Positions 1-130 of a stretch of DNA of 20,803 bases are shown piece after piece. The notes under the pieces were generated by a model. The model was given only the letters and a program-made list of their open reading frames with translations. It did not search any database and had not been told where the DNA came from. Location: IMG/VR virus record IMGVR_UViG_2690316131_000021. The stretch is one strand, 5' to 3'. This stretch comes from a virus (Duplodnaviria > Heunggongvirae > Uroviricota > Caudoviricetes). Within the stretch, counting starts at the first letter, position 1; each line of letters starts with the position of its first letter. The position numbers were made by a program, and so were the translations under genes.

Positions 1-121
1 TCGCTGGTCGCTGGTCGCTGGTCGCTGGTCGCTGGTCGCTGGTCGCTGGTCGCTGGTCGCTGGTCGCTGGTCGCTGGTCGCTGGTCGCTGGTCGCTGGTC
101 GCTGGTCGCTGGTCGCTGGTC
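1..121. repeat. Perfect tandem heptanucleotide repeat (TCGCTGG)x17, truncated by window edge
   Basis: Direct reading: 120 nt of uninterrupted 7-bp units, no stop codon in any frame on either strand. Confidence 0.95.
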
Positions 122-130
122 TGGCAGCAT
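1..130 (-). CDS. 5' end of an unknown gene whose N-terminus is encoded by the 7-bp repeat (M-L-P-(DQRPATS)n); partial
   Basis: ATG at 130..128 on the - strand preceded by AAGGA (about 8 nt spacing); frame reads MLPDQRPATSDQRPATS... into the repeat and stays open to the window edge. Not in ORF track because truncated. Confidence 0.35.
   Translation of the reverse strand, partial: MLPDQRPATSDQRPATSDQRPATSDQRPATSDQRPATSDQRPA

Follow-up and report, generated by a model that had tools for sequence, protein, structure and literature searches.

The window, i.e. the whole stretch of 20,803 nucleotides of tailed-phage DNA analyzed here, begins with a tandem repeat of seven nucleotides, which on the minus strand is preceded by two closely spaced start codons and, further upstream, by genes of a lambdoid late region. 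The features are given from the left end of the window; the letters A, B and C denote alleles of the locus, with the junction between tract and gene being CCAGCAGTAAATC in allele A and CCGTAAATC in allele B, and with allele C found in strain E7-1N7.

1..121, minus strand: heptanucleotide tract, which reads (CCAGCGA)n in the coding direction and TCGCTGG on the plus strand
128..130, minus strand: ATG2, the putative main start, located 11 nt ahead of the first complete unit (ATGCTGCCAGA) and kept in alleles A, B and C
131..165, minus strand: imperfect 17-nt direct repeat, CAAAAAACGTTGATTTT / CATAAAAGGATGATTTT on the gene strand, which contains the Shine-Dalgarno (SD) sequence and lies immediately upstream of ATG2
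135..137, minus strand: TGA closing the third frame, 18 nt before the tract; this frame has no start codon
136..138, minus strand: ATG1, a second start codon in a different frame, 8 nt upstream of ATG2 and 19 nt before the tract
138..142, minus strand: SD sequence AAGGA, 7 nt upstream of ATG2, its last base being the A of ATG1
305-460, minus strand: ORF of the hok toxin, directly upstream of the tract gene
455-629, minus strand: hok/sok RNA region (Rfam sok), which together with hok spans 305..629
636..663, minus strand: sigma-70-like promoter TTGAAA-16-TAGAAT with 10/12 consensus matches, just after the stop codon of Q
660..1085, minus strand: gene of the antiterminator Q, which sets the late-operon context

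The repeat had been described in an earlier note, made from the letters of the window, as a perfect heptamer array that encodes the same heptapeptide in all frames. Both statements hold. TRF reported a period-7 array with the consensus TCGCTGG over window positions 1-121 (17.3 copies, 100% matches, 0 indels), and the 14-mer TCGCTGGTCGCTGG occurs 16 times in the window vs. 0 times in 100 dinucleotide-preserving shuffles. Every frame of the gene strand reads (DQRPATS)n through the tract, and stop codons are absent from all six frames. Likewise, translation of the minus strand from position 130 gave MLP(DQRPATS)n, stop-free up to the window edge, as expected for the proposed gene start at an ATG served by an AAGGA SD sequence. 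The length of 17 copies had to be abandoned, because the window starts inside the tract; its 17 full units plus 2 nt are a truncation, and the repeat runs on beyond the edge. A stub of 121 nt at the end of a window of such odd length looks like the end of a short-read contig. In the sole complete genome that is identical over window positions 1-1300, strain Z1323HEC0393, the tract has 88 copies. However, the identity of 100% is restricted to approximately 1-1300 and then gives way to a mosaic of 96-99% blocks with gaps, hence the copy number of the window itself cannot be taken from this genome; its prophage has an IS3 inserted in the gene for replication, and its tRNAs are not followed by stx. 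When proteins were searched with the heptapeptide repeat, only 7 short fragments were recovered.

The placement of the tract downstream of Q and hok in the direction of the late operon, also stated before, agrees with the annotation, since both genes were found upstream on the minus strand, where a hok/sok toxin-antitoxin cassette separates Q from the tract gene. The site at 636..663 is a candidate for the late promoter pR' or for the hok promoter and represents, as a consensus match, the sole predicted origin of transcripts that would enter the tract gene. The stretch from hok to the ATG yielded no sigma-70 promoter, and the terminator scan predicted no terminator on the minus strand between hok and ATG2. 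The tract gene may thus be read from the hok or the late promoter, without a predicted terminator in between.

Extension to the left in genomes that contain the entire tract revealed the full ORF that the window cuts off, a restriction-methylation gene of approximately 680 aa that abuts the tract. The gene order is Q, hok, tract, a gene called 'HsdM' by PGAP, a specificity gene, a truncated methylase and the tRNA-Ile/Arg/Arg genes. Beyond the tRNAs, stx2b is found in strain 04-00955, where the module lies approximately 4 kb upstream of it, and other cargo elsewhere. The 'HsdM' frame is open upstream of its annotated TTG start, via a spacer of 80 nt, into the tract, and reads ..SSKSRKSVKSVEPEITELANSWLKSYRLDYK.. 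there; PGAP places the CDS start at a TTG 31 codons past the tract in allele A and approximately 115 codons past it in allele B. Tract-free homologues from Neisseria, Providencia and a Methylophilaceae MAG (72-73% identity) begin with M..SIEPNIADLANGWLKSY, exactly where the tract ends. Hence, the tract sits just after the start codon, and the annotated starts remove conserved residues.

The enzyme matched the PADLOC profile REase_MTase_IIG over its full length (E=6.8e-234, 776 bits, residues 6-675 of the post-tract protein) vs. 79 bits for MTase_I. The Pfam N6_Mtase match passes its cutoff; the N-terminal VRR_NUC match is weak, with 20.2 bits vs. a cutoff of 23.8, and improves once the protein is extended from the annotated TTG start back to the tract. 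The motifs PD..EYK and NPPY are invariant in 26 homologues. The adjacent specificity ORF of 361-383 aa carries Methylase_S in two stretches (Pfam) and matches PADLOC Specificity_II, while hsdR is absent from all loci read in E. coli and Neisseria. In E. coli, the neighbours are the truncated methylase, tRNAs and stx; in Neisseria, they are housekeeping genes. The PGAP label as a Type I HsdM was rejected, because the protein scored 36.3 bits with the NCBIfam hsdM equivalog TIGR00497 vs. its cutoff of 242.75, far below that required, in addition to the low MTase_I score and the missing hsdR. A deposited phage record (PhiR12_3) labels the gene 'BcgI alpha chain-like'. As judged by profiles, motifs and layout, the system shares with BcgI (Type IIB) the two genes, the N-terminal PD-(D/E)xK nuclease, the gamma-class NPPY methylase, the HsdS-like subunit with two TRDs and the lack of HsdR. 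By these features the tract gene is a predicted BcgI-like bifunctional nuclease and N6-adenine methyltransferase that works with a separate two-TRD S subunit and without HsdR. BcgI itself is not known to be phase-variable. A sequence search of the PDB with the enzyme gave no match among solved structures, and an AlphaFold model built from a shallow alignment (72-88% identity) was poor (pLDDT 61, pTM 0.39), such that its Foldseek matches to HsdM, BsaXI and BpuSI carry little weight.

After the tract exactly one frame is open, for approximately 680 codons, and reads ..SKSRKSVKSVEPxIxxLANxWLKSY.., whereas the other two stop within 1-12 codons. The frame that follows the tract therefore depends on the copy number modulo three, in accordance with the earlier proposal, and all three states occur in nature. 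The SD sequence, ATG2, ATG1 and the TGA of the third frame have the same layout in all three alleles. For allele A this means that copy numbers with n mod 3 = 2 bring ATG2 into the enzyme frame, and those with n mod 3 = 0 bring ATG1 there; for allele B the respective remainders are 0 and 1. As there are two ATGs in two frames, the arrangement probably provides three states, and the third frame, closed by the TGA and devoid of a start codon, would be a true OFF frame. ATG1, whose product begins with MILCCQ(TSDQRPA)n, is probably a weak start abutting the SD sequence, the strengths of both starts being estimated from SD spacing; in strain 48 it is changed to ATA. Fusion proteins of the types MLP(DQRPATS)n... 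and MILCCQ(TSDQRPA)n... have been annotated where the frame permits (P0006, P0009, P0010), with P0010 and WP_250192026.1 (739 aa) in the ATG1 frame. The 17-nt direct repeat is retained in allele C, which is only 81% identical, and could be a regulatory site or a duplicated ribosome-binding region.

Of 5426 complete E. coli genomes, 29 contain the tract junction and 30 the gene that follows it, always on the chromosome, and the locus is present in one deposited phage, the above-mentioned PhiR12_3. In the 25 loci that were read base by base, the tract comprises 16-120 units. Twenty of these verified tracts are perfectly pure and differ in length by exact multiples of 7; the remaining five (four older assemblies and 2015C-3121) show 1-2-nt or other irregularities, possibly sequencing errors. 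Seven further genomes, sized from BLAST spans only, fit the same picture. The comparison of related genomes, which the earlier note had named as a check, revealed polymorphism even where the flanks are identical. With 0 mismatches over 6.6-8.9 kb of flank, 55 units are found in 7-15 45A, 57 in 7-58 72A, 63 in 2013C-3250 and 30 in E2855; strains G6/7 and G8 have 82 vs. 98 units, again with 0 flank mismatches, and the two prophages of the single genome OkiPb01692 have 30 and 22. The value of exactly 82 units recurs, verified in 7-32 9A (O111:H8), G6/7 and PhiR12_3 and taken from the span only in UCPROB-002. G6/7 and PhiR12_3 differ by 1 mismatch on each side, 7-32 9A by 37 and 303. Such recurrence is odd for a fast-mutating tract and possibly reflects shared recent prophage ancestry or a favoured length.

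Among IMG/VR contigs and in one protein, 8-18 units were counted, which assemblers may have collapsed. Several contigs (L018, L141, L147-L153) end at the tract, which suggests that short-read assemblies routinely break there. Furthermore, the cluster of the protein P0001, with 841 member sequences, has a representative that starts just after the tract and is named 'partial'. The scan of viral contigs yielded no Salmonella tract junction; the contig of the Salmonella homologue begins with the last 6 nt of a possible tract. Contig ends of this kind, the end of the window inside the tract and the 1-2-nt irregularities of some tracts could be taken to mean that the repeat variation is an artefact of assembly or sequencing. 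However, the tract is bridged in 25 independent finished assemblies and in the phage genome, each time with unique sequence on either side, and 20 of the 25 verified tracts differ in length by whole 7-nt units, so we give this explanation practically no credence.

Equally negligible is the probability that the ORF on the plus strand across the tract (window 1-148) represents the real gene. Most genomes do list it, under the name 'YXWGXW repeat-containing protein' or 'hypothetical protein', but the tract is free of stops in six frames and makes such an ORF automatic. Moreover, its length tracks the tract, its end (4148 or 4230) and its name vary with the copy number, and it runs antisense to the conserved N-terminus of the enzyme.

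The earlier note had considered the perfect tract to be either recent or maintained. Only the second part could be upheld. A comparison of the three tract-bearing alleles with one another and with the homologue from Salmonella gave a dN/dS of 0.054-0.057 at dS 1.2-1.6, which points to an M gene that is under strong purifying selection, and the M ORF was never flagged as a pseudogene in 24 feature tables. The M genes of the tract-bearing alleles are 80-81% identical in nucleotides and all have the pure heptamer. Since the tract is shared by alleles that diverged to dS > 1, it is old, neither recent nor a sign of decay; its purity is presumably kept by continual slippage.

Taken together, the locus displays the marks of a contingency locus, i.e. 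a pure repeat in the 5' part of the gene, a unit that is not a multiple of three and polymorphism among near-identical genomes. The contingency architecture based on slipped-strand mispairing, as initially suspected, is thus supported by the anatomy of the ORF, the hypervariable copy number and the natural occurrence of all three frame states. We consider it likely, from the sequences compared here, that the tract acts as a slipped-strand translational switch of a prophage-borne, BcgI-like restriction-modification gene. The tract separates the start codon from the second block of conserved residues of the enzyme, and 7-nt units gained or lost there during replication would change the reading frame. 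In one state the strong ATG2, served by the SD sequence, would be in frame with the enzyme, in another the weak ATG1 alone, and in the last neither ATG, with translation ending 1-12 codons past the tract. As nuclease and methylase reside on one protein, the whole system would go on and off together, and a population of lysogens would become mixed for the restriction of incoming DNA and for genome methylation. MutS-dependent repair in E. coli handles loops of up to ~4 nt, and a 7-nt loop should escape it. We infer that expression follows the frame and that switching is fast, reversible within a clone and adaptive.

Among the 25 loci ATG2 is in frame in 8, ATG1 in 7 and neither in 10, the frame calls of the five irregular loci being uncertain. 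This near-uniform split is predicted by fast switching, but equally by a selectively neutral tract. It could therefore be argued that the repeat is a neutral hypervariable VNTR in a leader, and that the enzyme is translated from an internal start past the tract without any regulatory effect, which would be consistent with the CDS starts placed by PGAP downstream of the tract and with three frame states that are about equally common. This is the only serious rival, because it fits the uniform frame split, but it accounts neither for the start architecture nor for the residues that would be lost, and we regard it as rather improbable. The residues skipped by an internal start, SVEPxIxxLANxWLKSYxLDYK, are nearly invariant across genera and lie within the profile match, and the annotated start of allele B would even delete the PD..EYK nuclease motif. 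Tract-free homologues start at the tract position. Furthermore, the SD sequence, ATG2, ATG1 and the third-frame TGA are conserved in an allele that is elsewhere only 81% identical, and in-frame fusion proteins have been annotated (P0006, P0009, P0010). Some tract-independent translation of an N-terminally shortened protein from the downstream TTG/ATG of PGAP may occur. A further point against the switch is that the tracts of 350-840 bp far exceed those of classical contingency loci and would lengthen the nuclease domain by as many as 280 residues of (DQRPATS)n, a load that the protein may not tolerate.

Additional repeats exist in the specificity gene. In allele B, an octanucleotide tract, (GGACTCGC)n, is located in the linker between the two TRDs and comprises 4, 9, 16, 6, 16 and 28 units across six loci (04-00955 [L012], L163, L164, L165, L167 and L169, respectively); the genome most similar to the window has an allele that lacks it. 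In the loci with a checked frame, the S gene of allele B forms one ORF at 6 and 9 units and is split at 4, 16 and 28. In 2015C-3121 (L164, with 16 octamer units), an IS1 lies between M and S. The central coiled-coil region of the S gene contains an in-frame repeat of 24 bp (IEELEAAH) in two or three copies, one or two in L160 (loci L002, L012, L017 and L160). This repeat resembles the TAEL repeats of EcoR124I/II, which alter the length of the recognised spacer.

Like the octamer tract, a parallel to the heptamer in Pectobacterium carotovorum DSM 30168 (L028:6520-7662) lends support to the switch; there, (CCAGCGA)17 comes right behind the SD sequence and ATG of an unrelated DNA methyltransferase gene of the EcoRI_methylase family (E=1e-130). 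The tract is in frame and encodes the same heptapeptide, while its flanks are non-homologous to the E. coli locus. Among the matches listed in the scan of species-representative genomes, which are mostly GC-rich MAGs where the motif is unrelated, no locus read had the enzyme gene, and only the Pectobacterium locus showed a similar context at the start of a gene.

The heptamer could also have a role as DNA. On the plus strand the tract contains GCTGGTCG every 7 nt, which by its sequence alone is one mismatch from Chi (GCTGGTGG), and arrays of 17 to 120 such near-Chi motifs in a single orientation might attenuate RecBCD on phage or prophage DNA, with the coding context being incidental. But, in the standard orientation of the lambda map, as deduced from gene order, the motif would lie on the strand that is not read by RecBCD coming from the cos end. 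Moreover, a Chi-like function leaves the SD sequence, the ATGs, the frame architecture and the methylase heptamer of Pectobacterium unexplained, and it appears very improbable to us.

Returning to the slipped-strand switch, a broader proposal can be made only tentatively, and its chances are clearly below even. Lambdoid and Stx-type prophages might carry a doubly switched module for defence and epigenetic control, in which the 7-mer would set the enzyme to strong, weak or off, the 8-mer present in the S gene of some alleles would determine a full or half S subunit, and the 24-bp repeat would vary the spacer; its occurrence on an unrelated methylase gene of Pectobacterium would then identify the heptamer as a switch cassette that can be reused within Enterobacterales. 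If this is true, one prophage would generate several methylation and restriction states per clone, and could modulate superinfection, prophage induction and possibly the expression of the stx region ~4 kb downstream.

Slipped-strand on/off switches are well known in Haemophilus and Neisseria. The textbook view of phase variation in E. coli comprises invertible elements and Dam methylation. A review on phase variation from 2025 likewise gives only invertible elements and epigenetic examples for E. coli. Restriction-modification genes that are phase-variable through simple sequence repeats (SSRs) have been described for Type III mod genes (phasevarions in Haemophilus, Neisseria, Moraxella and Helicobacter) and for Type I hsdM/hsdS, including surveys of REBASE (PMC7383803, PMC5909438). 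The locus resembles SSR-containing mod and hsdM genes in its perfect repeat in the 5' coding region of a methyltransferase, a unit that is not divisible by three, one frame that yields the enzyme while the others stop early, and a copy number that varies between close relatives. It differs from them in the fused, BcgI-like nuclease-methylase instead of a Type III Mod or Type I HsdM, in the E. coli host and the lambdoid (Stx-type) prophage as carrier, and in the 7-nt unit with up to 120 units (840 bp) vs. usually <40, and with two starts in two frames. In the main text of the REBASE survey on SSRs in Type I genes E. coli goes unmentioned. Since the annotated CDS starts after the tract, surveys based on CDS would miss the locus.

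Two known genes come close in single aspects. Cj0031 of Campylobacter jejuni is a chromosomal, phase-variable Type IIG enzyme with a poly-G tract inside the gene. As in Cj0031, restriction and methylation reside here on a single polypeptide, and both activities would switch together; in contrast to its homopolymer and its specificity determinant in the same polypeptide, the present locus has a heptamer directly behind the start codon and encodes specificity in an S subunit of its own. The lic1A gene of Haemophilus influenzae, which is involved in the phosphorylcholine decoration of LPS, contains a tetranucleotide repeat, (CAAT)n, and alternative ATGs. Both loci have two start codons in different frames upstream of the repeat, resulting in strong, weak and off states (with strengths in our case deduced from SD spacing), but the repeat here is a heptamer in a restriction-modification gene and not a tetranucleotide in an LPS gene.

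With respect to phages, contingency loci have been proposed as a bet-hedging strategy in the coliphages T2 and T4, in a preprint stating that none had previously been reported in phages (PMC12633550). The T2/T4 loci and the present one have in common that hypermutable repeats are located on phage genomes (PMC12633550). Whereas the repeats in virulent-phage genes such as agt are short and of the homopolymer type, the present tract is a long heptamer array in a defence gene of a temperate phage. The preprint (PMC12633550) does not mention lambdoid phages, heptanucleotide repeats or methyltransferases, and 'prophage' appears in one cited title only. Our literature search, of incomplete coverage, for the repeat, the heptapeptide and the Stx/BcgI/prophage context found no publication on this locus. 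The mechanism is of a known kind; novel, as far as we found, are its host and carrier, the class of enzyme, the length of the tract and the pairing with a second switch.

A switch that is driven naturally by repeats would add notably to the modes of phase variation known from E. coli, even more so on a mobile prophage near stx. Lysogens that are mixed for restriction and methylation would matter for resistance to phages and for the flow of genes among strains that produce Shiga toxin, and possibly for epigenetic regulation. On the practical side, short-read assemblies break at the tract, a few kb upstream of stx, and the tract causes systematic misannotation, i.e. a spurious antisense ORF, a truncated gene start and the wrong 'HsdM' label. 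As a very fast-evolving marker, it could also separate outbreak isolates that are otherwise identical. The tract may coincide with one of the MLVA loci used for EHEC in Japan (EH111-x, EHC-x), for which the one paper retrieved lists no repeat sequences.

Finally, another repeat was noticed in a distant part of the window, at positions 7134-7187, where a 20-nt unit (CCCTCGTTTTGAGGGAACCT) is present in 2.8 copies with a match of 72%. These repeats are probably the iterons of a lambdoid replication origin inside an O-like gene.
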